Positions 489-26,464 of a stretch of 40,268 nucleotides of DNA are shown here, one piece after another. A program made the translations under genes and the position numbers. The first letter of the stretch is position 1. The number at the start of each line of letters is the position of its first letter. This DNA comes from Bacillota bacterium. Lineage in GTDB: Bacteria; Bacillota; Clostridia; Christensenellales; UBA1242. The stretch lies in NCBI GenBank assembly GCA_009780625.1, contig WQZR01000001.1, positions 1 to 40,268 on the forward strand. Direction: 5' to 3'. The notes under the pieces are model-generated. The model made no database searches and was not told the origin of the DNA. It saw only the letters and a list, made by a program, of their open reading frames with translations.

Positions 489-1249
489 TATAAAACTTCT
501 TCGAGGCAAAGACCCTTAGCATCAGCCGTTCCAATTCCATTGGTGCGGCTTTCTTTTTTTAGTGCGTTTTCTATGTCTTCTTTGGTAAGTTTGCCAAGTC
601 CAACATCAACAAGCGCTTGTGTCATAATTCTCACTTGGTTATGAAGAAAACTTCTTCCAGTGAAATATATTTTGATTATTGTAGGGGTCGCATCACCATG
701 CGACCCTGTTTCGAATCTTATATCTGTAAGTTTCCTCATATGGTCCGTCACTGCTGCTCCAGTCTTGCAAAAACTTTTAAAGTTTTTATAGCCAATCAAT
801 GAGGCAGAGGCTTCTTTCATTTTTTCTATGTCCAGTGGGCGTTTGATGTGCATTGCTGTGTCGCGTTCGAATGGGCACAAAACATCGCCGTTCCAAATTG
901 TGTAGGAATATGTTTTTGCCTTTGCTGAATATCTTGCCGAAAACTCTTTGTCTGCTTCTTCAACAGATAGAACTCTAATATCAGGTGGAAGCATTTGGTT
1001 TAAAGAAGTCTTTGCGTGTCCACAGTTTATTTTGTTTGAAGTAAAGAAATTCACGGTTTGCTTTTTTGCATGCACTCCAGAATCTGTTCTGCCAGAAGCA
1101 ACAACCGTCACCTTTTGTTGGCACACAGTTTCCAAAACAGTTTCCAAAACCCCTTGCACCGTTTTCTGTTTTGGTTGAATTTGAAAACCAGCATACCCCG
1201 TGCCGTCGAAACTTATAACCATCTTATGATTGAATTCAGATTTTTTCAT
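485..1249 (-). CDS. truA: tRNA pseudouridine(38-40) synthase TruA
   Basis: GRTDSGVHA catalytic motif, FLHNQVR motif, about 250 aa. Carries an in-frame REP insert (GSHGDATPT). Confidence 0.93.
   Translation of the reverse strand: MKKSEFNHKMVISFDGTGYAGFQIQPKQKTVQGVLETVLETVCQQKVTVVASGRTDSGVHAKKQTVNFFTSNKINCGHAKTSLNQMLPPDIRVLSVEEADKEFSARYSAKAKTYSYTIWNGDVLCPFERDTAMHIKRPLDIEKMKEASASLIGYKNFKSFCKTGAAVTDHMRKLTDIRFETGSHGDATPTIIKIYFTGRSFLHNQVRIMTQALVDVGLGKLTKEDIENALKKESRTNGIGTADAKGLCLEEVLY
681..706 (+). repeat. REP copy 1 (GTAGGGGTCGCATCACCATGCGACCC), inside truA, antisense to the gene
   Basis: GTAG plus a perfect 9-bp stem GGGTCGCAT/ATGCGACCC with loop CACC. The 30-mer 681-710 is identical to 9611-9640. 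Confidence 0.9.
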
Positions 1250-1268
1250 TATTTCTCATTATAGCATA

Positions 1269-1297
1269 TTGACAAACGCAAGATATGGCTATAAGAT
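1269..1297 (+). promoter_or_regulatory. Sigma-A-like promoter TTGACA-17-TAAGAT, 6 nt before the ATG at 1304 (leaderless candidate)
   Basis: Hexamers read directly. No SD between the -10 box and the ATG. Confidence 0.5.
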
Positions 1298-1303
1298 AGC
1301 AAT

Positions 1304-2425
1304 ATGAAAATTTATTTTAATCAAGATTGGCTAGATGGAAAAGGGCATGGTTCCGAAGACGCATGCAAATTCTTTTCTAAACACAGAATGGAGTTGTTCA
1401 ATGCCCTAAAAGAATCAACGCCACACGAATACATCACAGACAAAAAACTTATAGACGAAGACACAATCTTCTTCACTTCAACAATCGACAGCGAATTTGA
1501 CATGGGCGAATATAGCAAAATAGTTGAGGAAGAAAGAAAAGCAATTGACAAAATTCTTAAAACAAGTGAAATCAAACGCCCAAAGACGGCTTCCTTTTGG
1601 GAGTTTCTCGATAAGCCTTTCTTTCCAGTTATTGCCAAAAGCGAAATGCTGAACGCTGGAATGGATAAAATTCTTATTGAAAACAGAGAACAACTTGTTC
1701 CGTTCTTTGCTTTATATCAATATCTTAAAGAAGAAAAAATGGCTCTTTCAAAAAATGGAGGAACAATCACATATAAACATTTCGAAGAAATGGTTTTCCA
1801 GCAATATATTGAAACACCAAGCGAATATAACACTTCGCTTAGAGTCTACATCACAGGAGACCTTTCAATTGAAGCAGCAACAATCGAATATGGAAAGCCT
1901 GGCAAGAAAGAAATAAGAACACCGCTTGAGGGACTTATTCATGATTCACGAAGCCCGTTTTTTATAAACAACAAAAGCGTGACATCAAACTCAGAATGTG
2001 GCGGAGATAATATTGTTATTGGTAAAGATGTTGGCTATTCAAAAAAAGATAAAGAAATTTTGAAAGCTCATGGGTTTGACCCGCAGAATTGTGTTCTTCC
2101 AAAAGAACTAGAAGACATTTCAAAACGTATTATGAAAGGTTGTGCAAAGTTTCTAGGAATTGTTGCAGGGTTCGATTTCATTCTAAACAACGCCGACAAA
2201 AAGTGGTATTTTCTTGAAGTAGGCGGAAACCCAACACCGCACGACTATTCTTTGGTTCACGGACTAGGCTATAGCCCAACAGACAACACAATAAAAAATG
2301 TGACAAAGAGTGTGCAGATTGATTTGAAAGTGAGAACCGAAGCACTTGCAGAAATGATTTATCAAAGAAAAGAATCATTGAAGAAAAAACAAGCAAAGAA
2401 GAAACCAACAGAAGTGACAGCATAA
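1304..2425 (+). CDS. Hypothetical protein with an ATP-grasp-like C-terminal half
   Basis: LRVYITGD and GFDFILNNADKKWYFLEVGGNPTP resemble ATP-grasp strand motifs. N-terminal half not recognised. Confidence 0.5.
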   Translation: MKIYFNQDWLDGKGHGSEDACKFFSKHRMELFNALKESTPHEYITDKKLIDEDTIFFTSTIDSEFDMGEYSKIVEEERKAIDKILKTSEIKRPKTASFWEFLDKPFFPVIAKSEMLNAGMDKILIENREQLVPFFALYQYLKEEKMALSKNGGTITYKHFEEMVFQQYIETPSEYNTSLRVYITGDLSIEAATIEYGKPGKKEIRTPLEGLIHDSRSPFFINNKSVTSNSECGGDNIVIGKDVGYSKKDKEILKAHGFDPQNCVLPKELEDISKRIMKGCAKFLGIVAGFDFILNNADKKWYFLEVGGNPTPHDYSLVHGLGYSPTDNTIKNVTKSVQIDLKVRTEALAEMIYQRKESLKKKQAKKKPTEVTA

Positions 2426-2426
2426 A

Positions 2427-2456
2427 ACGCAAGAAAAAAACACTTGCGTTTTTTTA
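2427..2456 (+). terminator. Rho-independent terminator after 1304-2425
   Basis: ACGCAAG...CTTGCGT stem plus a T-run. Confidence 0.7.
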
Positions 2457-2472
2457 TGCGATAAGGTATAAT
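2444..2472 (+). promoter_or_regulatory. Promoter TTGCGT-17-TATAAT for rplM-rpsI, giving a leader of about 130 nt
   Basis: Hexamers read directly. The -35 overlaps the 3' arm of the upstream terminator. Confidence 0.5.
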
Positions 2473-2608
2473 CGCTAAGCGCTTAAAAGCATTTTTTTAT
2501 TAGCCCATAAGAAAGTGTCACAATAAGGGGAAACCCGCGCAGGAGAAAATCCACACCAGCATATGAAATGTTTATGCTGAGATTTAAAAAAGAGGAGAAA
2601 AAAGGAAA

Positions 2609-3058
2609 ATGAACAAAACAACAAAAATGGCAAACCCACAAACAGTTGTAAGAGAATGGCATGTTGTAGATGCAAGTGATATTCCACTAGGACGTCTTGC
2701 AAGCCAAATCGCTCAACTTCTTCGTGGAAAACACAAACCAACATTCACTCCACACACAGATTGTGGCGACTTTGTGGTTGTGCTAAACACAGACAAAATT
2801 GTTTTGACAGGTGCAAAACTAACAGACAAGTTTCACTACAGACCGTCAAGATACCCAGGCAACATGAAGCAAATTCAATATAAAGAACTTCTTGCAGAAA
2901 GAAGCGACTATATGCTTTGGCTTGCAGTAAAAAGAATGGTTCCAAACACAAGGCTTAGAGACGACCAAATGAACAGAATGAAAGCGTTCAAAGGTGCAGA
3001 ACACACTCACCAAGCTCAACAGCCAAAACCAAGAAAACTAGTGGGAGGAAGAAGATAG
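2609..3058 (+). CDS. rplM: 50S ribosomal protein L13
   Basis: [53 protein letters not shown] upstream. An alternative start at 2627 is possible. Confidence 0.95.
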
Positions 3059-3059
3059 T

Positions 3060-3461
3060 ATGAAAATAGTAAACAAACAAAAATTCTTCTGGGGAACTGG
3101 AAGAAGAAAGAAAGCAGTTGCAAGAGTTAGAATCGTTGGCGGCGGAGCAGGAAAGATTGAAATCAACCAAAAAGATATTAAAGAATATTTCCTAAACGAC
3201 ATCTTAAAGCAAATCGTAAACCAACCACTTGTGCTTACTGGAGAAAAAGTTGACGTTTTTGTAAACGTTAAAGGTGGCGGACTTACAGGACAAGCAGGCG
3301 CAATCAGACACGGGCTATCAAGAGCGCTTATCAAGTTCAACGAGTCGCTTAAACCAGAGCTTAAGAAAGCAGGATATCTAACAAGAGACCCAAGAGCGAA
3401 AGAGCGTAAAAAATATGGTCTTAAAGCAGCAAGAAAAGCTCCACAATTCTCAAAACGTTAA
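3060..3461 (+). CDS. rpsI: 30S ribosomal protein S9
   Basis: [19 protein letters not shown]...[35 protein letters not shown], coupled to rplM. Confidence 0.96.
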
Positions 3462-3467
3462 TACACA

Positions 3468-3494
3468 AAAAAATGCCTTTCGGCATTTTTTTTG
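3468..3494 (+). terminator. Rho-independent terminator after rpsI
   Basis: AAATGCC-TTTC-GGCATTT plus T8. Confidence 0.8.
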
Positions 3495-3501
3495 TTATAC
3501 T
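3493..3501 (+). promoter_or_regulatory. Extended -10 TGtTATACT, 6 nt before the ATG at 3508 (leaderless candidate)
   Basis: Read directly. No SD. Confidence 0.45.
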
Positions 3502-3507
3502 ATATAT

Positions 3508-3828
3508 ATGAATGCAAAACAGAAGTTGCAAGTTCTAACAAGAATTATTGGAATACTCAGCGGAGTGGTGTATTTTGTTGCCGGCGTACTGCTGATTATT
3601 TTTGGAATATACTTCAGCCTAGACTATCTATGGACAATCGGAATAATTGTCACAATCTTTGGAATTATTCACATAATCTTGTTTTCGCTTTCAATTCCAG
3701 ATTCGAACAGATTTGCAATCAAAGCCATGGGCTTTGGTTTCCTCACCGGAAACATTCTTATTCTCATTCTTTCACTAATCATTTTCTTCCTTCAAGACGA
3801 AGAGAATAAGAAAGATATAAAAGGATAA
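3508..3828 (+). CDS. Small integral membrane protein, paralog A (about 106 aa, 3 predicted TM)
   Basis: The long ORF 3415-3828 overlaps rpsI. The internal ATG at 3508 follows the rpsI terminator and a TGtTATACT box. Shares G.(I/V)HI..F...FA....(L/F)(T/V)G(N/S)...SI....(K/Q)D.E with 3833-4150 and 4845-5159. Confidence 0.7.
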   Translation: MNAKQKLQVLTRIIGILSGVVYFVAGVLLIIFGIYFSLDYLWTIGIIVTIFGIIHIILFSLSIPDSNRFAIKAMGFGFLTGNILILILSLIIFFLQDEENKKDIKG

Positions 3829-3832
3829 TTCT

Positions 3833-4150
3833 ATGAAAAAAGATTTAAGGTTTCTAACCAACTTGTTCTATTTAATCAACGGGGGCATATGTGTGCTTTC
3901 AGGACTTGTTTCAATAATTGTAGGTATTGTTTACTATATTGGAGACGATTTGCTTTGGTCTACAATTTTAATTCCTTCAGGAAGTATTATTGCGGTGGTT
4001 GGTTTTGTGCATATAATTTTTTTCCTCGCTCTAATGACAACCAAAACAAAAACATTTGCAATCGCATCTACGATAATCAGCTATTTGACAGGCAATATTT
4101 TTATATTTGTTCTTTCAATCGCAACCCTCATTGCAAAAGATACTGAATAA
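3833..4150 (+). CDS. Small integral membrane protein, paralog B
   Basis: 105 aa and hydrophobic. Aligns by eye with paralogs A and C. Confidence 0.75.
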   Translation: MKKDLRFLTNLFYLINGGICVLSGLVSIIVGIVYYIGDDLLWSTILIPSGSIIAVVGFVHIIFFLALMTTKTKTFAIASTIISYLTGNIFIFVLSIATLIAKDTE

Positions 4151-4155
4151 AAAAT

Positions 4156-4181
4156 AAACGCCGCTGGCGTTTTTATTTTTT
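4156..4181. terminator. Bidirectional terminator between membrane paralog B and the RAYT gene
   Basis: ACGCC-GCT-GGCGT flanked by A- and T-runs. Confidence 0.65.
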
Positions 4182-4760
4182 ATAAACAAAATAGAAATCA
4201 GTCAGCCAGTTGACAGGGTTATTTTGAATATACTGCCTTGTTTCATTCAACTCTTTTTTATTTCTGATTATTCTTTCATAATAGTTTCGCTGGAAGAATT
4301 TGTATTTTGCATCTATTGTGCAATTTGATTTGAAGTGATGAATAATTTGGCCTAGTGAAATCGTAGGGGTCGCACCTGAGAGCGACCCGTTGTGTAAAAT
4401 TTGAATAATCATGTGAATATGATTTGGCATGATTACAAAGGAATCAATCTTATATCTTTTGCTAGTTTCATTTATACGGTTTATTCTACCTAGTATTATT
4501 TTTCCTAGTGATGACAATTTGATTTGCGGGTCGCTCTCAGGTGCGACCCCTACATTTCCTCGAATTCCGTATTTTAACTCGTGTTCGGTAGGCATCAAAA
4601 CCTCGCTCAAAATGCAATGCCCGTCTTGAACACAAATAACCACATGATAAAACCGCGGCTCTTTATAGTCGAAACTTTTCAATCTGACATCTTTTCTTAC
4701 GGGCAATCCGCTTGCTTGTCCTCTAAGTTCTCTTTCAGTCATAAATCTATTATAGTACAT
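4173..4760 (-). CDS. REP-associated tyrosine transposase (RAYT / TnpA_REP, IS200-like Y1 HUH enzyme)
   Basis: VRLKSFDYKEPRFYHVVICV N-terminus, HUH motif MPNHIHMII, C-terminal FQRNYYERIIRN...YIQNNPVNW. Contains two in-frame REP copies. Confidence 0.85.
   Translation of the reverse strand: MYYNRFMTERELRGQASGLPVRKDVRLKSFDYKEPRFYHVVICVQDGHCILSEVLMPTEHELKYGIRGNVGVAPESDPQIKLSSLGKIILGRINRINETSKRYKIDSFVIMPNHIHMIIQILHNGSLSGATPTISLGQIIHHFKSNCTIDAKYKFFQRNYYERIIRNKKELNETRQYIQNNPVNWLTDFYFVYKK
4363..4388 (+). repeat. REP copy 2 (GTAGGGGTCGCACCTGAGAGCGACCC), inside the RAYT gene
   Basis: Read directly. Encodes GSLSGATPT in the RAYT frame. Confidence 0.9.
4528..4553 (-). repeat. REP copy 3, exact reverse complement of copy 2, inside the RAYT gene
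   Basis: GGGTCGCTCTCAGGTGCGACCCCTAC on the + strand. Encodes VGVAPESDP in the RAYT frame. Confidence 0.9.
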
Positions 4761-4793
4761 TTGTTCTAAATATCAAAGCAGATGTAAAACGCT

Positions 4794-4820
4794 TTGAATT
4801 TTTCGGGGGGGGGGTAGAAT
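4794..4820 (+). promoter_or_regulatory. Promoter TTGAAT / 15-nt spacer containing G10 / TAGAAT upstream of membrane paralog C
   Basis: G run at 4805-4814 counted from the sequence. The spacer is 2 nt shorter than the 17-nt optimum. Confidence 0.5.
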
Positions 4821-4844
4821 TAAGTGATTGGAAGGAGATTAGAC

Positions 4845-9343: not shown

Positions 9344-9913
9344 ATGAAAAACTTTGAAGGAACAGAATTCTTTTTAGGCACACCAACAAGGCTTGATTAT
9401 TTAAGAGAACTAAAACAGAGGCAGGAGATGGAAAGAGAAGAAACATTCGAACAAAGAGTTCTTAGAGAAAGAGAGCGTGAGGCAGAGAAGGTTGAACTGC
9501 AAACAAAAATGATTAGAGAAAAAATTCAAACACAACTGCTTCTTGAAGACTTTTCAAACACCAGTTTTTTGGAGTTTAAAAAAGAAATTGTACTCCGTGC
9601 ACCTGAAGGTGTAGGGGTCGCATCACCATGCGACCCTGTTGAGGTTGTCGACATTCGAGAGCGTATTGTTTCAAATGTAGGGGACGCGCCACAGAGCGTC
9701 CCAACAGAAAGAACCTTCAACGAAGAAGATTTCTCTAAACTTCTAAAAAAAAAGAAGAACAGCAAAAAAGGTGTTTTTGGCGAAATCGTTTTTCTTATAA
9801 CCCTCTTCTTTATGGCAACGCTTTTGTTGGTTATGATTTCTGGAACTTTTGACATAGGAATCATAGGAACATTTCTAAGAGAAGAGACAAATTTTCATGA
9901 AATATTTAGTTAA
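9344..9913 (+). CDS. Hypothetical protein with a charged N-terminal region and a C-terminal TM anchor
   Basis: Overlaps the downstream M50 protease gene by 17 nt. Contains two in-frame REP copies (GVGVASPCDP, NVGDAPQSVP). Confidence 0.6.
   Translation: MKNFEGTEFFLGTPTRLDYLRELKQRQEMEREETFEQRVLREREREAEKVELQTKMIREKIQTQLLLEDFSNTSFLEFKKEIVLRAPEGVGVASPCDPVEVVDIRERIVSNVGDAPQSVPTERTFNEEDFSKLLKKKKNSKKGVFGEIVFLITLFFMATLLLVMISGTFDIGIIGTFLREETNFHEIFS
9611..9636 (+). repeat. REP copy 4 (identical to copy 1)
   Basis: In frame in ORF 9344-9913 (GVGVASPCDP). Confidence 0.9.
9677..9702 (+). repeat. REP copy 5, stem variant GTAGGGGACGCGCCACAGAGCGTCCC
   Basis: T->A in the 5' arm is matched by A->T in the 3' arm, so pairing is kept. 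In frame (NVGDAPQSVP). Confidence 0.85.
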
Positions 9914-10634: not shown

Positions 10635-11036
10635 ATGACAACACCATTCGGAGTAGAAGCAACAAAGGAAATGTATGGTTTCGAAGCACTTGGAAAAGCA
10701 ATTGAAAGCAAAGAAATTGCTGTGAAAGATTTACCAAAAATGCTAGACAAAATTCTTATGGCTGCAGACCTAGAAGGTCTTGATGCGTTTGAAAACTTTA
10801 TCGTTGAAACAATCACACCATATAGAAAAAGAAAAGACTCAGGCTACGACAACGAAGCAGGCATTATGTATGACAAAACTTTCTTAGAAACAGAATATGA
10901 AGAAGCTCAAAAGAAACTTCTGGCAGATGTGACTCTAAGAAAAAAACTGTTAGAAATGGAAATGGAAAAGAGATATTCAAGCATTCAAGAAAGACTAGAG
11001 CAAAAAGCAAAACAAGCAGAAAGATTTATGCGTTAA
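10635..11036 (+). CDS. Hypothetical protein
   Basis: SD AAAGGAGA, consensus promoter upstream and terminator downstream. No family recognised. Confidence 0.6.
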   Translation: MTTPFGVEATKEMYGFEALGKAIESKEIAVKDLPKMLDKILMAADLEGLDAFENFIVETITPYRKRKDSGYDNEAGIMYDKTFLETEYEEAQKKLLADVTLRKKLLEMEMEKRYSSIQERLEQKAKQAERFMR

Positions 11037-11037: not shown

Positions 11038-11067
11038 AAAAAGGGTCGCACCACGGTGCGACTTTTA
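11038..11067 (+). terminator. REP-related hairpin acting as a terminator after 10635-11036
   Basis: GTCGCACC..GGTGCGAC stem followed by TTTT. Confidence 0.55.
11043..11062 (+). repeat. Partial REP-like hairpin GGGTCGCACCACGGTGCGAC (no GTAG head), intergenic
   Basis: Shares GGGTCGCACC with the REP family. Flanked by an A-tract and TTTT. Confidence 0.6.
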
Positions 11068-12799: not shown

Positions 12800-15700
12800 A
12801 TGGGGAATGAAAGAAACAATCCAGGATTTTTGAAAAGAATGGCAATAGGAACAGTAGCGTTTTTCACTAGACCAAGAGCGGGCGCATTGGCGGCTTTAGC
12901 ACTTGTTCCAGTTGCAGCAATAACACTAACAGCGTGCGGAGGAGGTGGCGGCGGACAACAACAGCAACAAACAGTTCAACTTGGAAACGTTGCAGGTCTT
13001 GCAGTTGCAAAATCTGGTGAAGTGACATGGACGTCTCCAGCGTCAGGAACACACGAACACGGTGCGAATATCCGACTTACAATAAACGGAACAGACTCAA
13101 CAGTTGCGGCAACTGCTGGAAGTTTCCAAATAGCAGATGTTCAACCAGAAACAACATATAATGTAAGTGCAGTTTTCACAAGAGCAGAAAACTCAACTCA
13201 TAAATTTACAAATTCTGCAGCGGCAGCAACAGCAAACATGACAACAGACCCAGCAACTGCACAAAAAACAACAGTGACACTCGCTAACGTTCAAGGTCTT
13301 GCAGTTGCAAAATCAGGTGCAATCACTTGGACAGTTCCAACAGCAGGAACAAACGAGCGTGATGCAAACATTCAATTGACAGTGAACAGCGGCTCGCCAA
13401 TCACTTTGGCAGCAACAGCAGGCACACATCAAATTGCAAGCGTTCAACCACTAACAACATATAACGTAAGTGCAATTTTCTCAAGAGCAGAAAACGATAC
13501 GCATATATTCAACAACAGTGCAGTGCCAGCAACAGCAAGCATGACAACAGAGCCTCCTCAAGTTCAATCTGTTTCTTTAAATATTGACACAAGAGTGATT
13601 TCTGTAAGCAGAGTTTCAGGTCCTGCAAACCTTGCAATTCCAGTTGACGTGAAACTGATTAACAACGCAAACCAAGCAGTTATATGGGAAGGAATAGTTG
13701 CGGCAAATCAAACAACTGTAACAATTCCACAACCTAGCTGGCAAACAGACGTTACGGTTAGAGTTGAAGCATCAAAACAAGGTTCAACAGCAGCTGCAGT
13801 AAGTTCAGTTGCAGTATACATTCCAGAACCAGGTGTAACCCAACAAGACGCACAACTTGGAAACATCACAAACCTTCAAATTTCAACAGCGGGTCTAGTT
13901 ACATGGACACGCCCAACAGGAGTACACGATGCAGACGCATCAGTTGCGTTAACAATCAACGGAACAACTCACACAATCGCACCAGATGCACCATCACAAA
14001 CATTCCAAATAACAACAACACCAGGCATGAAATATGAAGCAAGTGCAATCATGACAAGAACAAGCAATGCACAATATAACTTCCTTCCAAGCACAACGCC
14101 TGCAACTGCAGAACGCACAATCGACAAACAGTCAATTCAACTTGGGCAAATTTCAAACCTAAGAATAAATGCAGCAGGTCTAATTCAATGGGACCTTCCA
14201 GCAGGGGCACACAACTCAGGTGCAATTGTTAATATGACAATTATTGGGGTAAATGGAAACAATCCTTTTGTTCCAGCAAACGCAACAAGCCACCAGCTTA
14301 CATCAGGCATCACACCAGGTGCAAACTTCAGTGTTAGTGCTTTCCTAACAAAAGCAGAAGATGCAACAACAATCTTCACACAAGGACCAACTGTAGGACC
14401 ACAAACACTTCAAGTTCCAAAAACACAAGTTCAACTTGGACAGATTTCAAATCTTAGAATCACAAGCGGCGGTCTAATCCAGTGGGACAGACCAGCAGGA
14501 GAGCATAACGAAGGCGCAACAGTTAACCTAATAATTCCAGGAATCAACAGTGGGCAACCTTTCCAAGCCGAAGGTCCAACAAGTCACCAACTTATGAGCA
14601 CACAAGCCGGCAATCAGTTTACTGTAAGTGCATTCTTAACAAGACCAGAAAACACAACAACAACATTCACACAGGGTGCAACAACATCGCCAGTGAACCT
14701 TACAGTTCCAAAAGTTCAAGCTCAACTTGGAAACGTAACAGGCGTTTCAATTTCAAACACAGGTCTAGTTCAATGGACGCGTCCAACAGGAACACACGAC
14801 ACAGCCGCGTCTGTTCAACTTACAATTGCAGGATATAGAAACGGAGAAGCTTTCACAGTAAGCCCGCAAAACTCATCGAGCTATCAAATGTTGGCAGCAA
14901 ACGCAGGTGGAACACTTGCAGGAAAAACATTCTCTGTAAGTTCAGCAATAATGACAAGAGCCGAAAACGACACTCATACATTCAGTAACAGCCAAACACC
15001 AGCAACAAGCAATCCTGTAACAATTCCAGCTGGGTTGACAAACGTTGCAAGAGATGTTGTAGACCTTACAGCAGAAAGTAATTATTTAGTTATGACACTT
15101 GCTCCAGAGTTCTGGGAGTTTAGTGACCAGCGAGTTAGAGTTCAAGTTCGTAGCCAAAATGGAGGAGAAGCGATTTCGAATTGGCTTGAAGTTTGGAGCA
15201 ACACGCCATTTAGAGAAGGAAACACAAATCAAGTTCGCATTCCACTAGCAGAATTTAATTTTGACGATATGATAGATAATGCAGTGCCAACAGGAGTTCC
15301 TCTTCAATTTAGAACTCAAGCAAGAAACACCTCTGCAAACTGGATTACTGCAAAAAACTTTAACGATATAACAGTTCCAGTTCCAAAAACACAAGTTCAA
15401 CTTGGAAACCTAACAAACGTTAGGATAAACAATGCTGGTCTTGTTCAGTGGGATATTCCAGCAGGGGCAGGAAATGCAGGTGCACAAATTCAACTGACAA
15501 TTTCTAACTATAAAGGTGGAGACCCAATCACATTAAGTCCGGGAGCAACTTCATATCAGATGCAGGCTGCAAACGCAGGGGGAACGCTTGTTGGAAAAAC
15601 ATTCACTGCGTCGGCACAACTGATGGGTTATGAGGACCCGACAACTGTTTTCCTATCTGGCTCGGCAGCAACTTCTGCTCCTAGAACAATTCAAGAAATT

Positions 15701-17014
15701 CAACAACCAGGGCAAGTTCCAGGTGCAACAAACATCATACCTATAGACGTGTGGAATGCAATGCAACAGGGTGGAGTTTTGATGGGCAATAACGCAGACC
15801 TAAATAGACTGCGCGCTGCAATTGGTGGAAGACTTGTGGAAGAAGGCTTAATGTCTGGAAACCAAAATATTGTTGGTGTGCTTAACATGCAAACAATCAA
15901 CACAACTGGTGATGGTTGGTTCCCACTAGGTGCGGGAGTCAATGGTCTTATGACAGCAGATAATGACACTTTAACTTTCACTGTGTTCATAAGAGATGGA
16001 AGTGGTCCAATTGAAATGCATAATGTGACATTCACGCTTGTGAAAGACTGGGATATTCGTCAACTTCAAAATAGTGGAAATAACTTAAACTCTGTTATAA
16101 ATTCGCTTATTGGTTCTTCTGACAACGGCGGACCAATCAATGCTGGCAGCACATCTGTAAGCATGACACGAGCAGACACAAACTTTGCAACTTGGGCAAT
16201 GACTGAACAAGTTGCGCCACAAATCACACAAAACGGAAATACGGTTATTGTTTCAGGGTTAAACCCAACAAACGGTCTAGTTGTAACAAGAACCTGGGGT
16301 GCTGGTGGACTTACTTCAGGTGCACAAACAGCATGGAACAACGGTGTTACAGAACCAGGTGGAATTATTGCATGGCTTCAAAGTGCTCCTCCAGAGGAAA
16401 CCAACACTCATGCAGCTGCTCAACTTTTGATTCAATATGGTGTTACAACTATAGAAGAATTAGTAATGTTGGCTTATATGGACTTTGGTGACGGAGAACT
16501 AACTGGAGCACAAACCGCACTTATAGCACACTTCTCACGACAAGTGACGACAAACTTAGGACAAGACATATTCGGTTCACTCAGCGGACGTATGACGGTA
16601 AACAACAATGAAGTTATTGACGCAATCAAAGCTGCAGATTTACACCTCCCACCTTCAAATGAAGGACCAGATGGTGCAGATATGGGAATAAGCAGTGCGA
16701 TGATGCCAATGAGTTTCGGAAACGACGCATATGATGTGTTTACAATTGGAACAGTTGTGAGCCCAGAAATTGAAAAAGCAATGGCAGAAATAAAAGCAAC
16801 GCTTGGCGAGTTGTATGAAAAGAAAGCAGAACTTGAAGCAATGGCAGATAAGGAAACAATCATTGATGGCTTAAGCCCATATGCTGCAGAAAGTTTTAAA
16901 CTAGACTTAAAAATCAAAAAACTTGAAGCAGAGCTTAAAGCATATCAGGAACAAATTATGCCAGAACAAATCTTTATGGTTAAAAAGCCAACAAACACAG
17001 ACCCACTAGCATAA
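12800..17014 (+). CDS. Giant surface lipoprotein with seven ~100-aa beta-sandwich-like repeat modules
   Basis: Signal peptide plus lipobox LTAC followed by GGGGGGQQQQQ. Repeated (V/A)QLGN..G(L/V).(V/I)...G.(V/I).W..P.G.H module. C-terminal coiled coil. Confidence 0.85.
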   Translation: MGNERNNPGFLKRMAIGTVAFFTRPRAGALAALALVPVAAITLTACGGGGGGQQQQQTVQLGNVAGLAVAKSGEVTWTSPASGTHEHGANIRLTINGTDSTVAATAGSFQIADVQPETTYNVSAVFTRAENSTHKFTNSAAAATANMTTDPATAQKTTVTLANVQGLAVAKSGAITWTVPTAGTNERDANIQLTVNSGSPITLAATAGTHQIASVQPLTTYNVSAIFSRAENDTHIFNNSAVPATASMTTEPPQVQSVSLNIDTRVISVSRVSGPANLAIPVDVKLINNANQAVIWEGIVAANQTTVTIPQPSWQTDVTVRVEASKQGSTAAAVSSVAVYIPEPGVTQQDAQLGNITNLQISTAGLVTWTRPTGVHDADASVALTINGTTHTIAPDAPSQTFQITTTPGMKYEASAIMTRTSNAQYNFLPSTTPATAERTIDKQSIQLGQISNLRINAAGLIQWDLPAGAHNSGAIVNMTIIGVNGNNPFVPANATSHQLTSGITPGANFSVSAFLTKAEDATTIFTQGPTVGPQTLQVPKTQVQLGQISNLRITSGGLIQWDRPAGEHNEGATVNLIIPGINSGQPFQAEGPTSHQLMSTQAGNQFTVSAFLTRPENTTTTFTQGATTSPVNLTVPKVQAQLGNVTGVSISNTGLVQWTRPTGTHDTAASVQLTIAGYRNGEAFTVSPQNSSSYQMLAANAGGTLAGKTFSVSSAIMTRAENDTHTFSNSQTPATSNPVTIPAGLTNVARDVVDLTAESNYLVMTLAPEFWEFSDQRVRVQVRSQNGGEAISNWLEVWSNTPFREGNTNQVRIPLAEFNFDDMIDNAVPTGVPLQFRTQARNTSANWITAKNFNDITVPVPKTQVQLGNLTNVRINNAGLVQWDIPAGAGNAGAQIQLTISNYKGGDPITLSPGATSYQMQAANAGGTLVGKTFTASAQLMGYEDPTTVFLSGSAATSAPRTIQEIQQPGQVPGATNIIPIDVWNAMQQGGVLMGNNADLNRLRAAIGGRLVEEGLMSGNQNIVGVLNMQTINTTGDGWFPLGAGVNGLMTADNDTLTFTVFIRDGSGPIEMHNVTFTLVKDWDIRQLQNSGNNLNSVINSLIGSSDNGGPINAGSTSVSMTRADTNFATWAMTEQVAPQITQNGNTVIVSGLNPTNGLVVTRTWGAGGLTSGAQTAWNNGVTEPGGIIAWLQSAPPEETNTHAAAQLLIQYGVTTIEELVMLAYMDFGDGELTGAQTALIAHFSRQVTTNLGQDIFGSLSGRMTVNNNEVIDAIKAADLHLPPSNEGPDGADMGISSAMMPMSFGNDAYDVFTIGTVVSPEIEKAMAEIKATLGELYEKKAELEAMADKETIIDGLSPYAAESFKLDLKIKKLEAELKAYQEQIMPEQIFMVKKPTNTDPLA
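12974..15694 (+). repeat. Seven diverged intragenic repeat modules
   Basis: Module starts at about 12974, 13274, 13850, 14135, 14429, 14720 and 15395. Each begins xQLG(N/Q) and ends (T/S)A.(F/M)(T/S)R.EN..(H/T).F. Two unrelated inserts interrupt the array at aa 257-350 and 745-865. Confidence 0.8.
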
Positions 17015-17023
17015 CAATTTAAA

Positions 17024-17051
17024 CAAAAAAACGCTCAGAGGCGTTTTTTTA
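17024..17051 (+). terminator. Terminator after the giant lipoprotein gene
   Basis: AAACGC-TCAGAG-GCGTTT plus a T-run. Confidence 0.65.
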
Positions 17052-21301: not shown

Positions 21302-21303
21302 AC

Positions 21304-21876: not shown

Positions 21877-21885
21877 CAACCTTAG

Positions 21886-21894: not shown

Positions 21895-21901
21895 ATAGAA
21901 T

Positions 21902-22741
21902 ATGAGATTAAATAAATATATCGCGTCGACCACTGATTATAGCCGTAGGAAAAGTGAAGATGCCATTAAAGAAGGCAGGGTTTTGATTAACAACGAGGTT
22001 GTTAAAAATCTTGCAACCACCGTGGGTGAAGAAGATGTTGTGGAGTTAGACGGCAAAATTTTGTTTCTTCCAAAAAACTTTGTGTATATATGCATGAACA
22101 AACCAAAGGGCTACATCACATCAGTGACAGACGACAGAGGCAGAAAGACTGTTCTTGATTTAATTAAAGAAAAAGACCTGCCAAGAATTTATCCTGTAGG
22201 GCGTTTAGACTACGACACAGAAGGCATGCTTATTCTAACCAACGACGGAGAACTGACAAGACAACTAACACATCCTTCAAGCAAGGTTAAAAAGATATAT
22301 CAACTTAACATCGAAGGAGAACTTTCAAAAGACGATATCAAAAAACTTGAAACTGGCGTAACGCTGGAGTTTGGCTATAAAACCGCACCAGCAACAGTTG
22401 AGATTATTGAAGTTCAATCGGCAAAACAGATTTATAGAAACAAGGTGAAAAACTATATCAAAGAAGAAGAAAAAGCAGGGCTAGACGAAAAGACAATCAA
22501 ACAAAATCTAGAAGACAACCCAATCAAGAAAAAATATGAAGACCCGAACTTCAAAATAACAAGATTTCAGTTGTCAATAACCGAAGGAAAAAACAGACAA
22601 GTCAGAAAAATGCTCGAAGCAATCGGCAAACACATAATTCTTCTAAAACGTGTTCAAATCGGGCAATTGAAAATGGGCGGCTTAAACCGCGGGGAATATA
22701 AGTTCCTAACACCGCACGAAGCTTACTTACTAAAACAATAA
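21902..22741 (+). CDS. rluB: rRNA pseudouridine synthase, RsuA/RluB family (S4 domain plus catalytic domain)
   Basis: MRLNKYIA..SRRKSEDAIKEGRVLIN S4 domain and GRLDYDTEGMLILTNDGEL catalytic motif. Lys/Glu-rich insertion before the C-terminal strand. Confidence 0.88.
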   Translation: MRLNKYIASTTDYSRRKSEDAIKEGRVLINNEVVKNLATTVGEEDVVELDGKILFLPKNFVYICMNKPKGYITSVTDDRGRKTVLDLIKEKDLPRIYPVGRLDYDTEGMLILTNDGELTRQLTHPSSKVKKIYQLNIEGELSKDDIKKLETGVTLEFGYKTAPATVEIIEVQSAKQIYRNKVKNYIKEEEKAGLDEKTIKQNLEDNPIKKKYEDPNFKITRFQLSITEGKNRQVRKMLEAIGKHIILLKRVQIGQLKMGGLNRGEYKFLTPHEAYLLKQ

Positions 22742-22742
22742 T

Positions 22743-22767
22743 GTAGGGGTCGACCACTGGGCGACCC
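22743..22767 (+). repeat. REP copy 7 (25-nt subtype GTAGGGGTCGACCACTGGGCGACCC), intergenic rluB-ruvA
   Basis: Starts 1 nt after the rluB TAA. Same subtype as copy 12. Confidence 0.85.
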
Positions 22768-22789
22768 GAGCGACCAAAGGGAGCAGAAA

Positions 22790-23395
22790 ATGATTTCATT
22801 TATTGAAGGAAAAATTGTAGAGAAAACAGATAAGAGCATTATCGTTAAATGCGGACATATGGGCATGGAAATTTTGGCGTCTTCGTTTTCGATTGCAAAT
22901 GCAAAGCACACAGGCGAAGAAGACTTTTTTTATACATACCTTCATGTTAGGGAAGACGCGTTGGTGCTTTTAGGTTTCAAAACAAAAGAAGAACGCGGAA
23001 TATTTTTAAATCTGATTGAAGTTTCGGGAATTGGTCCAAAAGCAGCAATGACAATTCTAAGCGCAATGCCACTTGAGAACTTAGCTTCAGCAATTGTAAG
23101 GGGAGATGTGAATGCCCTTGCTTCAGCAAAAGGCGTTGGAAAGAAAACAGCAGAACGCATTGTGCTTGAACTTAAAGAAAACATTAGAAAGAATTACAAA
23201 TCAGATGTAGGGGTCGCGCCTCAGAGCGACCCGCAATCAGACATAAGTCTTAGCCAAATTGAGCAAGACGCACAAATCGGGCTAATGAGTCTAGGGCTTA
23301 CCAAAAAAGAATCTGCAGAAGTGATTAAAAAAACGAGAGAGCATTCACCAAAAACCAGCGAAGAAATAATTAAACTCTCATTAAGGATGTTATAG
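22790..23395 (+). CDS. ruvA: Holliday junction branch migration complex subunit RuvA
   Basis: MISFIEGKI N-terminus, GIGPKAAMTILS and AKGVGKKTAERIVLELK HhH motifs. REP insert in the domain II-III linker. Confidence 0.92.
   Translation: MISFIEGKIVEKTDKSIIVKCGHMGMEILASSFSIANAKHTGEEDFFYTYLHVREDALVLLGFKTKEERGIFLNLIEVSGIGPKAAMTILSAMPLENLASAIVRGDVNALASAKGVGKKTAERIVLELKENIRKNYKSDVGVAPQSDPQSDISLSQIEQDAQIGLMSLGLTKKESAEVIKKTREHSPKTSEEIIKLSLRML
23207..23232 (+). repeat. REP copy 8 (GTAGGGGTCGCGCCTCAGAGCGACCC), inside ruvA
   Basis: Encodes VGVAPQSDP. Differs by 1 nt from copy 11 over GTAG...GACCCGCAA. Confidence 0.9.
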
Positions 23396-23396
23396 T

Positions 23397-23597
23397 ATGA
23401 AGAAATATTTAAAAGATAAGATTTTTTGGATTCTAGTAATAATCGCAGCATTGTCTGGTATTTTGGGAATTACTTTAAGTTTTTTTCCAGAAAATCTTAC
23501 AGCTAGTTTGTTCGCAGCAATATTCACGATTACATTCGCTCTTTCTCTATTGTCAATATTGATATATATGGTCATTAAGGAGTTTAGATATAAATAA
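23397..23597 (+). CDS. Small membrane protein (2 TM) between ruvA and ruvB
   Basis: ATG lies 1 nt after the ruvA stop. Hydrophobic 66 aa, followed by a terminator. Confidence 0.5.
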   Translation: MKKYLKDKIFWILVIIAALSGILGITLSFFPENLTASLFAAIFTITFALSLLSILIYMVIKEFRYK

Positions 23598-23604
23598 GTA
23601 TTTC

Positions 23605-23628
23605 AAAACTCCTAACGGAGTTTTTTTG
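23605..23628 (+). terminator. Terminator between the ruvA/small ORF and ruvB
   Basis: AAACTCC-TAAC-GGAGTTT plus a T-run. Confidence 0.7.
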
Positions 23629-23637
23629 TGCTAAAAT
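23629..23637 (+). promoter_or_regulatory. Extended -10 TGcTAAAAT, 6 nt before the ruvB ATG (leaderless candidate)
   Basis: Read directly. Follows a terminator. No SD. Confidence 0.5.
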
Positions 23638-23643
23638 ATAAGC

Positions 23644-24705
23644 ATGGACCCTAAAGATTTTATTAAGTCAGCAAAACCTGCTGGAACACAAATAGAAGTT
23701 CGCGATGTTGCTCCTATAAAACAGGAACAAGATATCGATTTTGAAAACAAACTTAGACCAAAGAGTCTAGTTTCTTTTGTTGGTCAGAAAAAGATTAAAG
23801 AAAACCTGAATGTATATATCTCTGCAGCAAAGAAAAGAAATGAAGTTCTAGACCACGTTTTGCTATATGGTCCTCCAGGACTTGGAAAAACAACTCTTGC
23901 ACGCATCTTAGCAACAGAAATGAACGCACAGATTAGATACACAACTGGTCCAACAATTGAGCGTGCTGCAGACCTTGCCAGCATTCTTTCAAACATCAAA
24001 CGTGGTGATGTTTTATTCATAGACGAAATTCATGGACTTGCTAAAAATATCGAAGAAATTTTATATGGAGCAATGGAAGATTTCAGCCTAGACCTAATCA
24101 CAGGAAAAGGTCCATCTGCAAACAGCATTCGCATTTCAATTGAACCATTCACGCTTATAGGAGCCACCACAAGGGCAGGGTTAATCTCTGCACCACTTAG
24201 AGACCGTTTCGGTGTTGTTGAACGTCTGGAGCTATATACAGCCGAAGAACTGGCTCAAATCGTTTCACGCAGTGCTGAAATTCTTGGAATTAAGATTTCA
24301 CAAGATGCAGCAACAGAACTAGCTAAACGCGCACGCGGAACGCCAAGAATTGCAAACAGACTTATTCGAAGAGTTAGAGACTTTGCGGAATTTGCAGGGA
24401 AAGATTCAATAGGTATTGAAGAAACAAAACATGCTCTAGAAAAACTTGGAATTGATGCACTAGGTCTAGACGCAACAGACATAAAACTACTTAAAGCAAT
24501 TCACGAAAAATATTCAAACGGTCCAGTTGGACTTGAAACACTTTCAGCAATCACAGGTGAAGATTCTAAAACAATCGAAGATATGTATGAGCCATATTTG
24601 ATGGCGTTAGGCTTACTAACAAAAACACCACGCGGAAGAATAATCACCGACGCAGCAATCGAACACATCACAGGAAAACCAGCAGGAGGACAACTCAGTT
24701 TCTAA
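23644..24705 (+). CDS. ruvB: Holliday junction DNA helicase RuvB
   Basis: [13 protein letters not shown] Walker A, VLFIDEIH Walker [16 protein letters not shown]. Confidence 0.96.
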
Positions 24706-24706
24706 A

Positions 24707-25780
24707 ATGAAAACAGACATCAAAGACTATTGGTATGATTTGCCACCAGAACTTATTGCACAAACTCCACTAAAGAAGCGCGACGAAAGTAAGCTTCTCT
24801 ATTTTGATGGCAAAAATGTAAACCACGGAAACAAGTTTTTAGATTTGCCAAAACTATTAAAAAAAGGCGACATTCTTGTTGTAAACGAAACAAAGGTTTT
24901 GCCGATTAGACTTATTGGAAAAAAATCAACTGGTGCAGAGTGCGAAGTTTTTCTCTTAAAAGATATAGGGGTCGCACCTCAGGGCGACCCGAACAAAAAA
25001 ACATACAACGCTCTAATCAGACCAGCAAAAAGACTTAAAGTAGGAGACGCAGTTGACTGCGGCAAAATGAAAGTTAGAATATCAGAGAAACACGAAGATG
25101 GTCAAGCAACAGTTGAACTAAACTACACTGGCATCTTCGAAGAAGTTCTAGATGAGGTGGGAGAAGTCCCTCTTCCTAGTTACATAAAAAACGTAGGGGT
25201 TGCACCTCAGGGCGACCCGCTCTGCGAACGCTATAACACAATCTATGCATGTCACGCAGGCAGCAGCGCTGCACCAACTGCAGGGCTTCATTTCACACCT
25301 GAGGTGATTAAACAAGTTGAAGCGATGGGCGTGGAAATTGTTCGCATAATTCTTCATGTGGGTCTGGGAACATTTAGACCAATCAAGGTGGATAACATCC
25401 TAAATCACGACATGCACTCAGAAGAATATTTCATTTCACCTGAAGCGGCAGAAAAGATTAACAGAGCGAAAAGAGAGAATAGAAGAGTTGTTGGTGTTGG
25501 AACAACCAGCATGCGAGCTCTTGAACACAACAGTGCACAATATGGCGAAATCAAGGCAGGAAGTTTTCTTGCAAACAGTTTTATTCATAACGACTACGAT
25601 TTTAAAATAATCGATGCAATGATTACAAACTTCCACCTGCCAAATTCAACACTAGTTTTGTTGGTTTCGGCATTCGTTGGTTTTGACAACTATAAAGAAA
25701 TATATAAACAAGCCGTGGAACAGCAATATAGATTTTTTTCTTTCGGAGACTCTAGTTTCCTAATCAGACCAAGGAAATAA
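24707..25780 (+). CDS. queA: S-adenosylmethionine:tRNA ribosyltransferase-isomerase QueA
   Basis: YDLPPELIAQTP, GSSAAPTAGLHFT, GVGTTSMRALE, ITNFHLPNSTL. Two in-frame REP inserts. Confidence 0.95.
   Translation: MKTDIKDYWYDLPPELIAQTPLKKRDESKLLYFDGKNVNHGNKFLDLPKLLKKGDILVVNETKVLPIRLIGKKSTGAECEVFLLKDIGVAPQGDPNKKTYNALIRPAKRLKVGDAVDCGKMKVRISEKHEDGQATVELNYTGIFEEVLDEVGEVPLPSYIKNVGVAPQGDPLCERYNTIYACHAGSSAAPTAGLHFTPEVIKQVEAMGVEIVRIILHVGLGTFRPIKVDNILNHDMHSEEYFISPEAAEKINRAKRENRRVVGVGTTSMRALEHNSAQYGEIKAGSFLANSFIHNDYDFKIIDAMITNFHLPNSTLVLLVSAFVGFDNYKEIYKQAVEQQYRFFSFGDSSFLIRPRK
24965..24990 (+). repeat. REP copy 9 (ATAGGGGTCGCACCTCAGGGCGACCC), inside queA
   Basis: Encodes IGVAPQGDP. The head is ATAG instead of GTAG. 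Confidence 0.85.
25193..25218 (+). repeat. REP copy 10 (GTAGGGGTTGCACCTCAGGGCGACCC), inside queA
   Basis: Encodes VGVAPQGDP. A C->T change in the 5' arm leaves a T:G wobble. Confidence 0.85.
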
Positions 25781-25897
25781 TATTTTTGAAAGATTGATTT
25801 ATACGAGAGAGCAAAAACATACTGTTTGAGCCTAGAGGCGAGTTGTATTTTTTTGCGAATGAGTGTAAACAATCTTGAAAAAAGCATAGTATGAATT

Positions 25898-26464
25898 ATG
25901 AAAATAATAAAACGAAAAATGTTTATGGGGGCAAACACGGCAGACGGGTTTGTTTCTTTTTATGACCAAATCGTTGACTGGTATGACATCAAAAAAATGT
26001 ATATATTGAAGGGCGGAAGCGGAGTTGGCAAAAGCACATTTATAAAAAAATTCACAGAAAGAGTTATTGCGAATGTAGGGGTCGCGCCTAAGAGCGACCC
26101 GCAAACTTTAACAATCGATTTCATCATGTGCAGTTTCGACCCCAACTCCTACGACGGCGTGATTATTCACGAACTGGGCTTGGCAATAATTGATGGAACG
26201 CTTCCACACATCGTCGACCCAAAATATCCAGGACTTGTTGAAGAAATAATTGATTTATCAAAATATATAAACCCAAATGCTGTAGGGGTCGACCGTTGGG
26301 CGACCCGTGACCTAAAACAACAAAAAAGCGAACTATTTAAGTCCGCATATAAAACTCTAAACGATGCAATGGCTGTGCATATGCAACTTGAAGTTGTCTA
26401 TAAAGATGCTGTTGATTTCAAAAAAGTAGACAAACTAATTAGTCACATAGTCTCCAAGATATGA
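25898..26464 (+). CDS. P-loop ATPase, apparently only the N-terminal half of a longer family
   Basis: GANTADGFVSFYD...LKGGSGVGKSTF Walker A...DGTLPHIVDP. Its 3' end overlaps the convergent gene by 30 nt. Two in-frame REP inserts. Start uncertain. Confidence 0.55.
   Translation: MKIIKRKMFMGANTADGFVSFYDQIVDWYDIKKMYILKGGSGVGKSTFIKKFTERVIANVGVAPKSDPQTLTIDFIMCSFDPNSYDGVIIHELGLAIIDGTLPHIVDPKYPGLVEEIIDLSKYINPNAVGVDRWATRDLKQQKSELFKSAYKTLNDAMAVHMQLEVVYKDAVDFKKVDKLISHIVSKI
26075..26100 (+). repeat. REP copy 11 (GTAGGGGTCGCGCCTAAGAGCGACCC), inside the P-loop ATPase gene
   Basis: Encodes VGVAPKSDP. Confidence 0.9.
26282..26306 (+). repeat. REP copy 12 (25-nt subtype GTAGGGGTCGACCGTTGGGCGACCC), inside the P-loop ATPase gene
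   Basis: Encodes VGVDRWATR. The 25-nt length shifts the frame of the 3' arm relative to 26-nt copies. Confidence 0.85.

Follow-up and report, generated by a model that had tools for sequence, protein, structure and literature searches.

A 40,268-nt stretch of DNA from an uncultured Bacillota bacterium (the whole contig WQZR01000001.1 of assembly GCA_009780625.1, called the window throughout the paper) carries a family of short GTAG-headed palindromes together with a gene for a REP-associated tyrosine transposase (RAYT). The palindromes are repetitive extragenic palindromic (REP) elements of a REP/RAYT system. They lie in coding DNA at random density, nearly always obey a GTA-GGG-GTC rule where they are sense to their host gene, and probably owe their distribution to RAYT-mediated movement combined with selection. 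The mobility of the REPs and its mechanism are what we infer from the sequence, while number, form and placement of the copies were directly observed.

The window was searched by a relaxed scan and by pattern matching that tolerated up to two mismatches. This yielded 11 full copies of the form RTAG + GGGNNNN + 7–8 nt loop + NNNNCCC, in agreement with the number reported in the original prediction. No matching element was obtained in 100 dinucleotide-preserving shuffles of the window. Ten of the 11 copies lie inside open reading frames (ORFs) and no reading frame is broken, as had also been predicted. The copies are given below, with phase 0 denoting the reading GTA GGG GTC.

681–706, plus strand: REP copy with the loop subtype ATCACCAT, antisense inside truA, read GSHGDATPT, at a beta-turn of TruA.
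4363–4388, plus strand: REP copy at RAYT "site 2" directly after the HUH motif, antisense to the RAYT gene, read GSLSGATPT.
4528–4553, minus strand: REP copy at RAYT "site 1", sense in the RAYT gene, read VGVAPESDP; its 26-mer is identical to 4363–4388 and inverted.
9611–9636, plus strand: REP copy, sense, phase 0, in the ORF 9344–9913, read VGVASPCDP.
9677–9702, plus strand: REP copy with the compensated stem GGGACGC/GCGTCCC, sense, phase 0, in the ORF 9344–9913, read VGDAPQSVP.
22743–22767, plus strand: REP copy of a 25-nt subtype, intergenic, in the 48-nt spacer between the stop of an RluB-like gene (22741) and the start of ruvA (22790).
23207–23232, plus strand: REP copy, sense, phase 0, in the domain II–III linker of ruvA, read VGVAPQSDP, with the direct repeat AATCAGA on both sides.
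24965–24990, plus strand: REP copy with an ATAG head, sense, phase 0, queA site 1, read IGVAPQGDP.
25193–25218, plus strand: REP copy with one stem mismatch, sense, phase 0, queA site 2, read VGVAPQGDP.
26075–26100, plus strand: REP copy, sense, phase 0, in a PRK06851-like ORF, read VGVAPKSDP.
26282–26306, plus strand: REP copy of the 25-nt subtype, sense, phase 0, in the same PRK06851-like ORF, read VGVDRWATR; this subtype is also found within the RAYT homolog P0124.

No REP copy was found in the window 3' of position 26306. A unit of 25–26 nt consists of the GTAG head, an invariant GGG...CCC clamp, four inner stem pairs that vary yet remain complementary, and a loop of 7–8 nt. The head is GTAG in 10 of the 11 copies and ATAG in the remaining one; among 22 distinct copies from the wider lineage set described below T2 and G4 were invariant, while G1 and A3 were conserved to at least 90%. 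The stems comprise 7–9 bp, with folding energies of the single-stranded DNA of -8.4 to -10.8 kcal/mol (z-scores of -2.8 to -4.6). Paired bases were found in 98% of the stem cells of copies that had been selected for pairing. Changes on both sides were counted in 15 inner-stem cells with GTAG and GGG/CCC fixed, a count that is partly circular because the copies were ascertained by pairing. The GTAG class of REPs is defined by a tetranucleotide, GTAG or GTGG, 0–2 nt 5' of the hairpin foot and by a G+C-rich imperfect palindrome of 20–40 nt able to form a stem-loop, and the copies agree with both features. The proposed subfamilies were recovered as well. The sequence shared by the copies at 681 and 9611, formerly given as a 30-mer, is an identical 31-mer (680–710 and 9610–9640), a single loop base distinguishes copy 23207 from copy 26075, the two having the flanks T...GCAA in common, and copies 22743 and 26282 form the 25-nt subtype. 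The additional partial copy claimed at 11043 had to be abandoned. The hairpin 11043–11062 carries neither GTAG nor a terminal GGG/CCC pairing. Composed of an A-tract, a 7-bp stem and a T-tract just past the stop of the ORF 10635–11036, it is terminator-like.

A scan of the window for decayed copies with a position weight matrix yielded none: the true copies scored 37–47 bits and everything else at most 16 bits. The absence of intermediate-scoring relics in the window fits youth of the copies as well as their maintenance. Maintenance is the core of the main competing explanation, which we regard as unlikely. It takes the hairpins for old functional elements, which might act as structures of the mRNA, pause translation, or provide gyrase, IHF or RAYT with sites on the DNA. 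Selection or gene conversion would keep them uniform, and the RAYT would be a domesticated enzyme of maintenance or processing and not a transposase. The lack of decayed window copies speaks for it, as does stem pairing that was kept through double changes, although the covariation count has the circularity named above. Identical 26–31-mers at unrelated sites and flanks common within subfamilies, by contrast, are more easily reconciled with dispersal than with such old elements.

The analysis was extended by a metagenome scan with the window's loop subtype, which gave eight contigs with a GC content of 0.34–0.43 and no overlap with the window; two more regions of the window's genome were added through RAYT homology. 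The resulting lineage set is a non-redundant 114 kb from the same or closely related organisms, less than a whole genome, and draws on the metagenome-assembled genome (MAG) of the window (locus tag FWD89, NCBI proteins MCL27706xx), GCA_009783595.1 (WRDD01) and JGI contigs. The JGI samples bear the same prefixes as termite-gut MAGs in our scan of GTDB and presumably originate from termite guts. A total of 35 GTAG-headed copies plus one relic with two substitutions was found in the 114 kb, compared to 11 copies in the 40 kb of the window, while 33 kb of the same genome contained solely RAYT-internal pairs. Copies and random 26-nt windows were assigned to ORFs by the same rule (100 or more codons without a stop, with 20 or more of them to either side). 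By this rule 29 of the 35 copies (83%) were intragenic, versus 81% of the random windows. For the same REP superfamily in other low-GC Clostridia (57 loci) the corresponding values were 22 of 100 copies versus 76% of the random windows. The difference in ORF share between the lineage and the other Clostridia was highly significant (Fisher p = 2.4e-10; 3e-8 without the six RAYT-internal copies). Exclusion of REPs from coding DNA is thus upheld in the relatives and absent in the window's lineage, whose copies lack the extragenic location typical of REPs and occupy long ORFs at the level of the coding density. The concern that copies elsewhere might be mostly intergenic, with the window as an outlier, did not materialize in the 114 kb of lineage DNA.

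The same REP-bearing genes recurred in a second NCBI MAG (MCL2483xxx), in GCA_009783595.1 (WRDD01), in two ENA assemblies and one Logan assembly and in JGI 3300010369. Among the 35 copies three tail-to-tail doublets (spacers of 0, 1 and 9 nt) and one intergenic pair were found, the rest being singlets, so that the unit differs from a REP doublet forming a hairpin (REPIN), in which the inverted doublet with its short spacer is the unit. A scan of GTDB species genomes with GTAGGGGTCGC-N8-GCGACCC returned at least 116 stretches. Among the matches listed, nearly all came from uncultured gut Clostridia (rabbit, goat, termite, human), in addition to Christensenella intestinihominis; GTAGGGG-headed 26-mers therefore form a widespread clostridial REP superfamily. 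The earlier assignment to a spore-forming Bacillota lineage was supported by the presence of yqfC/yqfD-like genes in the window MAG. In locus L122 one copy (3886–3911) precedes the likely ATG of a Nif3-like gene by about 27 nt and is in frame with it; were this gene called too long, the copy would pass for part of the N-terminal coding sequence. Annotation ambiguity of this sort has been noted before (Di Nocera 2013, PMC3733652).

All eight sense copies of the window are read in the phase GTA GGG GTC as V-G-V-A-P-x-x-D-P, and both antisense copies are read GGG TCG...ACC CCT ACA with the peptide G-S-x-x-G/D-A-T-P-T, as originally described. The one-phase pattern consequently stood, while the probability of about 0.004 attached to it was overstated. 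Since a TGA or TAA interrupts the alternative frame xGT AGG GGT in two of the sense copies, 4528 and 26075, these have one open frame each, and the window-only probability becomes (1/2)^6 = 0.016, or 0.06–0.09 if insertion is directed towards codon boundaries by the observed preference for T/AT at position -1. In the lineage set 21 of 22 sense intragenic copies were in phase 0. For copies with two open phases the value was 12 of 13 (p = 0.0017, or 0.02–0.04 under the T/AT target model). Single copies outside RAYT genes were sense in 16 and antisense in 2 cases (p = 0.001). Stop codons do not explain this orientation bias, because antisense copies have two to three open frames in most cases.

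We also considered that insertion is random with respect to phase and orientation, and that pattern and coding share arise from selection and drift in a small symbiont population alone, with no strand-specific or transcription- or replication-coupled targeting. TAG is present throughout in phase 2. Many subtypes have a TAA or TGA in phase 1, which in the others encodes the arginine-rich R-G-R-x-S-G-R-P with AGG and CGA codons, and the phase-0 preference recurs in other Clostridia, where 12 of 15 sense copies among the rare intragenic ones follow it. All of this would be expected under selection. The open antisense frames, however, stand against the 16:2 sense excess, and the GTAG strand coincides with the G-rich plus strand in 10 of 11 window copies, with the copy in the minus-strand gene truA among them, while the copy at 4528–4553 is the single one on the minus strand. 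Moreover, selection should deplete coding copies relative to intergenic ones, whereas 83% versus 81% was observed. Selection and drift as the sole cause were therefore judged improbable. Local GC/AT skew was tried for separating replication-strand from sense-strand bias and discarded, as skew tracks gene orientation on short contigs. Translational bypass or removal of the inserts need not be invoked, since no copy has a stop in the frame in which it is read.

The flanks of the copies are biased. Position -1 is T in 28 and A in none of the 35 lineage copies, positions -2 and -3 are A/R-rich, and position +1 is G in 22 and C in none of the 35, varying by subfamily. This conservation is compatible with a unit of 27 nt (26-mer + N) or of 30 nt (AAT + 26-mer + G, read N-VGVAPxxDP), both multiples of three. 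A fixed 3n unit was nevertheless not taken as established, since the singlets fit 27 or 30 nt, but the dimers and the residue gains given below do not. The direct repeat AATCAGA brackets the RuvA copy (window 23198–23243, period of 36 nt) and looks like a target duplication. As a general feature target-site duplication was rejected, for this repeat occurs at the RuvA copy and at no other.

The host genes of the window outside the RAYT gene were assigned by profile searches as follows.

485–1249, minus strand: truA, host of one copy.
9344–9913, plus strand: ORF of 189 aa without family match, host of two copies.
22790–23395, plus strand: ruvA, host of one copy.
24707–25780, plus strand: queA, host of two copies.
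25898–26464, plus strand: P-loop ORF of the PRK06851 family, N-terminal half only, host of two copies.

The last ORF spans profile positions of about 5–173 out of about 360 and lacks the C-terminal half, and its end is overlapped by an unannotated ORF of 216 aa (26435–27085, minus strand). Judged by its length, this gene with two REPs may be truncated. Further hosts in the lineage encode TsaD (four units), GlmS (four, relic included), PrmC (three), TruB, RsmI, Jag/EloR and a PMCA-type Ca-ATPase.

Where the copies could be mapped onto structures they fall into loops or linkers, in line with the predicted location in surface loops. Sites 1 and 2 of QueA correspond to gaps of 8 and net 6 residues in 16 homologs, and the same is seen in B. 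subtilis QueA (1YY3). In the AlphaFold2 (AF2) model of QueA (mean predicted local distance difference test score, pLDDT, of 78) site 1 forms the turn of a beta-hairpin between strands 78–86 and 97–105, and site 2 lies in a low-confidence stretch. Alignment to a solved structure places the RuvA copy in the flexible domain II–III linker. The antisense copy in TruA constitutes a beta-turn with two additional residues compared to T. thermophilus TruA and six compared to E. coli TruA. TruB with one unit is nine residues longer than its profile. The REPs are thus predicted to be translated as VGVAPxxDP[Q], a stretch of about 9–10 small residues well suited to loops, which in these housekeeping proteins occupies turns and linkers. 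One relic was found in the lineage set, via the peptide pattern: an antisense copy in the gene for GlmS (L125 5484–5510) with two substitutions, GTAGAGGTCGCATCACCATGCGAACC, read GSHGDATST. Copies therefore do decay in place.

These host data bear on two of the competing explanations. Old hairpins kept by selection or gene conversion do not agree well with the slightly decayed copy in GlmS, with host proteins of other taxa that lack the segments, or with host sites that share neither a common position nor a common function. Orthologs carrying the same peptides would have pointed to VGVAPxxDP as an ancestral or convergent protein motif with an incidental palindrome, and the repeats might in principle also be an assembly artefact. 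This idea is effectively refuted. Recurrence of the peptide itself is all that favours it, whereas both segments are missing from the 16 QueA homologs and the stems co-vary. In addition, this DNA is found antisense, where it reads GSxxGATPT, between genes (22743; L121, L123, L125) and, at L123 2958, in a different phase, and the same genes were recovered in four independent assemblies (ENA, JGI, Logan, NCBI).

The candidate enzyme of the REP/RAYT system was identified with Pfam, phmmer and Foldseek.

4173–4760, minus strand: RAYT-type Y1 (HUH) transposase gene, 195 aa (189 aa in the NCBI call, MCL2770692.1).

The motifs MPNHIHMI (HUH) and QRNYYERIIR (Tyr, also given as FFQRNYYERIIR) are visible, and the Pfam Y1_Tnp profile was matched with 29.6 bits at a cutoff of 23. 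E. coli TnpA_REP (4ER8) aligned from HUH to Tyr (phmmer E = 0.07). Using the AF2 model (pLDDT 75.6), Foldseek ranked 4ER8 first (E = 1e-6), followed by TnpA of IS608 and ISDra2. By its sequence, the 195-aa ORF is a RAYT with intact HUH/Tyr motifs of the Y1 type. A GTAG-headed hairpin family side by side with a Y1 transposase best matching 4ER8 agrees with the REP/RAYT-type system that had been proposed. The usual REPtron layout was not found: no flanking REP was detected within 3 kb of the window RAYT or within 10 kb of its paralogs in L131 and L128. Clostridial RAYTs as such are already known (Group 1, PMC5581495; subclass 1.1, PMC6006769).

The RAYT gene of the window holds two identical REPs that are inverted to each other. 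According to the AF2 model the sense copy (residues 69–79) forms a loop between strands 52–55 and 79–82, and the antisense copy (residues 122–135) a loop that joins the HUH strand to the helix following it. The same genome encodes two paralogs, P0122 (70% identical, locus tag FWD89_01615) and P0123 (58% identical, between uvrB and uvrA, L128 7326–12416). Both have the same two-site architecture, each with its own REP subtype and no other REP within 10 kb. The internal subtypes have the loop CCTGAGA in P0121 and CCTAAGG in P0122, P0123 has variants of its own, and P0124 carries the 25-nt subtype at both sites as deduced from the peptide. Three of the REP subtypes of P0121–P0124 also occur dispersed, with one RAYT per subtype, and the internal pairs are 140–190 nt apart. 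P0122 is found near dnaN and parA/parB (L131 751–1851, 17615–19550), probably close to the replication origin, and the 20.5-kb stretch of L131 contains no REP besides the pair inside the RAYT gene. An association of intragenic REPs with uvrA/B/C/D and truA/truB was reported as recurrent (Di Nocera 2013, PMC3733652); P0123 between uvrB and uvrA and the hosts TruA and TruB of the present set may be compared with it.

Perfect GTAG hairpin pairs were also found at the DNA level in RAYT ORFs of Christensenella intestinihominis (L081), of a rabbit Oscillospiraceae MAG (L056) and of metagenomic homologs (L134, L136, L138, L139). Every RAYT checked has an inverted pair of its own REP subtype in its ORF, beside the HUH motif. 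In the rabbit MAG a RAYT ORF of 312 aa (L056 890–1825, minus strand, CANROC01) carries an array of five sense copies in the site-1 loop, read as VGAATPGGPHAEAPVAASTSPGSPPAPP repeats, and one antisense copy after HUH. This amounts to a cluster resembling a bacterial interspersed mosaic element (BIME) within a transposase ORF, and its REP subtype is also dispersed in that MAG (L036, L102, L114). Using peptide patterns alone, 41 of 99 RAYT homologs showed G-x(4-7)-P-T right after HUH, the antisense reading of GGG...CCCCTAC, and 12 of 99 showed V-G-x...P before HUH, while many of the 99 had the same peptide further downstream. Two layouts were recognized. In one, a sense copy at site 1 is combined with an antisense copy at site 2; in the other, the antisense copy at site 2 is combined with a sense copy at site 3. 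Across the lineages orientation and phase are constant at each RAYT site, while the hairpin sequence differs.

The internal pair at two fixed loops suggests that enzyme and substrate co-evolve as one unit. On the basis of these sequences we tentatively propose, with somewhat more doubt than confidence, a broad RAYT clade (Christensenellales, Oscillospiraceae, the window's lineage and other metagenomic lineages) whose transposase genes would themselves contain the hairpins of their cognate REPs, an "inside-out REPtron". As master copy and/or as a site of self-recognition and autoregulation, the internal pair would physically couple the evolution of enzyme and substrate, and in the window's lineage the system would also have escaped exclusion from coding DNA. 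REPs inside RAYT ORFs, as opposed to 5' or 3' overlaps, are not described in the REP/RAYT literature compared here, which is no proof of novelty. The same RAYT sites also lend weight to old, maintained hairpins: identical loops used in the same orientation in distant RAYTs look conserved rather than repeatedly inserted, and RAYTs have been viewed as domesticated single-copy genes (PMC5581495).

We are fully aware that several observations weigh against a mobile REP/RAYT system as the explanation preferred here. The NCBIfam profile REP_Tyr_transpos (NF047646) was matched with 52.8 bits, below its cutoff of 80; this alignment covers profile positions 40–132 only, with the N-terminal part interrupted by the REP peptide of site 1. 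The net gain of the host proteins versus homologs ranges from +2 to +9 residues instead of a constant +9 or +10, and a clean insertion of fixed length is therefore not demonstrated; judged from the alignments, loop remodelling or partial replacement is possible instead of simple insertion. The lengths of the tail-to-tail dimers (52, 53 and 61 nt) are divisible by neither 27 nor 30. We found no transposition event, no empty site and no polymorphism for the presence of a copy: for each of six host proteins the members of the 90% cluster agree in length, and the nearest QueA relative among 5.8 billion proteins searched was 52% identical, so that a close sister taxon was lacking. Replication-strand and sense-strand bias are confounded on these short contigs, where the truA copy alone is informative. 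The density of REPs is patchy, as 20.5 kb and 12.4 kb of the same genome have no copy outside the RAYT gene, and L120–L125 may belong to related species rather than to the same one. The further claim that the system is active or recently active consequently survived in part: identical copies, the lack of relics in the window and intact RAYT genes favour it, the lack of insertion polymorphisms and empty sites does not, and the data are only consistent with activity.

For the REP/RAYT system the following sequence of events is proposed. The RAYT, as a Y1 HUH enzyme, would bind the hairpin on single-stranded DNA with GTAG as guide and would move or copy a unit with a length divisible by three (27 or 30 nt). 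Insertion would take place 3' of T or AT on a transiently single-stranded strand, which might be the template of lagging-strand synthesis or, in a transcribed gene, the non-template strand. Insertions in the TAG phase, in the arginine-rich or TAA/TGA-closed phase and at most of the disruptive positions would then be lost through purifying selection. By analogy with Rickettsia, weak selection and drift in a host-restricted gut symbiont may explain why many coding insertions persist. Enzymes of the IS200/IS605 family target the lagging-strand template, and with the G-rich plus strand as the presumed lagging-strand template, targeting of this kind would predict the 10:1 strand bias of the window.

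Apart from the REPs, the intergenic spacers of the window contain a hairpin family with A-tract, GC-stem and T-tract (AAAAAAACGCC...GGCGTTTTTTT) at 3454–3492, 4138–4176, 17012–17050, 23589–23627, 30406–30444, 32210–32248 and 36021–36059. These look like ordinary bidirectional intrinsic terminators, and the intergenic hairpin niche of this genome is occupied by such terminator-like hairpins and not by REPs. An ORF of 1404 aa within 12800–17014 has no family match and contains tandem repeats of 285–303 nt (about 95–101 aa, 60–77% identity, about 12961–15608) as well as a shorter 55-nt repeat (84% identity); it possibly encodes a surface protein. It is followed by an ORF of 919 aa, also without family match. 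Four minus-strand tRNA genes were found at 27171–27247 (Ile-GAT) and 30444–30701 (Asp-GTC, Met-CAT, Tyr-GTA).

Compared to the REP/RAYT systems of E. coli (TnpA_REP) and Pseudomonas (PMC2817692, PMC3116915, PMC3479197), the present family shares GTAG 5' of a G+C-rich imperfect palindrome of 20–40 nt, several REP subtypes per genome that are each matched to their own RAYT paralog as in REPtrons, a HUH/single-Tyr enzyme of the Y1 type with 4ER8 as best fold match, and the occurrence of some inverted dimers. It differs in that 83% of the copies lie in ORFs and in frame instead of extragenic, in the prevalence of singlets over REPIN doublets, in RAYT ORFs that contain an inverted REP pair, and in a low-GC Bacillota host instead of a proteobacterium. 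Intragenic GTAG REPs as such have already been reported, as minorities: Di Nocera, De Gregorio and Rocco (2013) catalogued GTAG/CGTC REPs within genes, most of them in Opitutus terrae and Rickettsia conorii, with no Bacillota among the genomes analysed (PMC3733652). As in the window's lineage, these GTAG REPs lie wholly within known genes and are read through, and genes of DNA repair and RNA modification, truA and truB included, are found among their hosts. In contrast, the intragenic copies are a minority of each family there, most REPs being intergenic, no common rule for phase or orientation was given, and with respect to RAYT ORFs overlaps at the 5' or 3' end were noted but no REP inside them was described (PMC3733652).

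IS200/IS605 elements such as IS608 and ISDra2 have the same Y1 HUH fold (Foldseek hits 2–29) and the recognition by a hairpin with a 5' guide tetranucleotide in common with the REP/RAYT system. Unlike them, the putative mobile unit here is a single non-coding hairpin of about 27–30 nt with the enzyme gene outside, and neither left and right ends nor a target tetranucleotide were established, only T at position -1. For the strand targeting of IS200/IS605 see PMC6006769.

The palindromic elements of Rickettsia (RPEs), as far as they are portrayed in a later account of the original work (Ogata et al. 2000/2002, cited in PMC3733652), likewise lie in frame in many housekeeping genes of a host-associated bacterium, are translated and are tolerated at permissive sites. 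According to the same account the short RPE-4 and RPE-6 are tagged by CGTC, in contrast to the GTAG-tagged 25–26-mers described here. Sequences and host phylum are unrelated, and the resemblance is one of behaviour only. RPE-1 elements measure about 100–150 bp, and we know of no dedicated transposase for the RPEs.

Finders of REPs or REPINs that are restricted to intergenic DNA would miss most of the present family, because its copies lie in genes as often as expected by chance. Besides the Rickettsia RPEs, the lineage represents a second, independent natural experiment on proteins that absorb selfish palindromes. The strand and phase rules offer a handle on how REPs are disseminated, a mechanism still unproven, since targeting of single-stranded DNA predicts different outcomes depending on whether it is coupled to replication or to transcription. 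If general, the REP pair inside the RAYT gene would provide a physical explanation for the co-evolution of RAYTs and REPs and a sequence signature predicting the substrate of each RAYT. Overall, the family works like a REP/RAYT system and behaves like the RPEs of Rickettsia.

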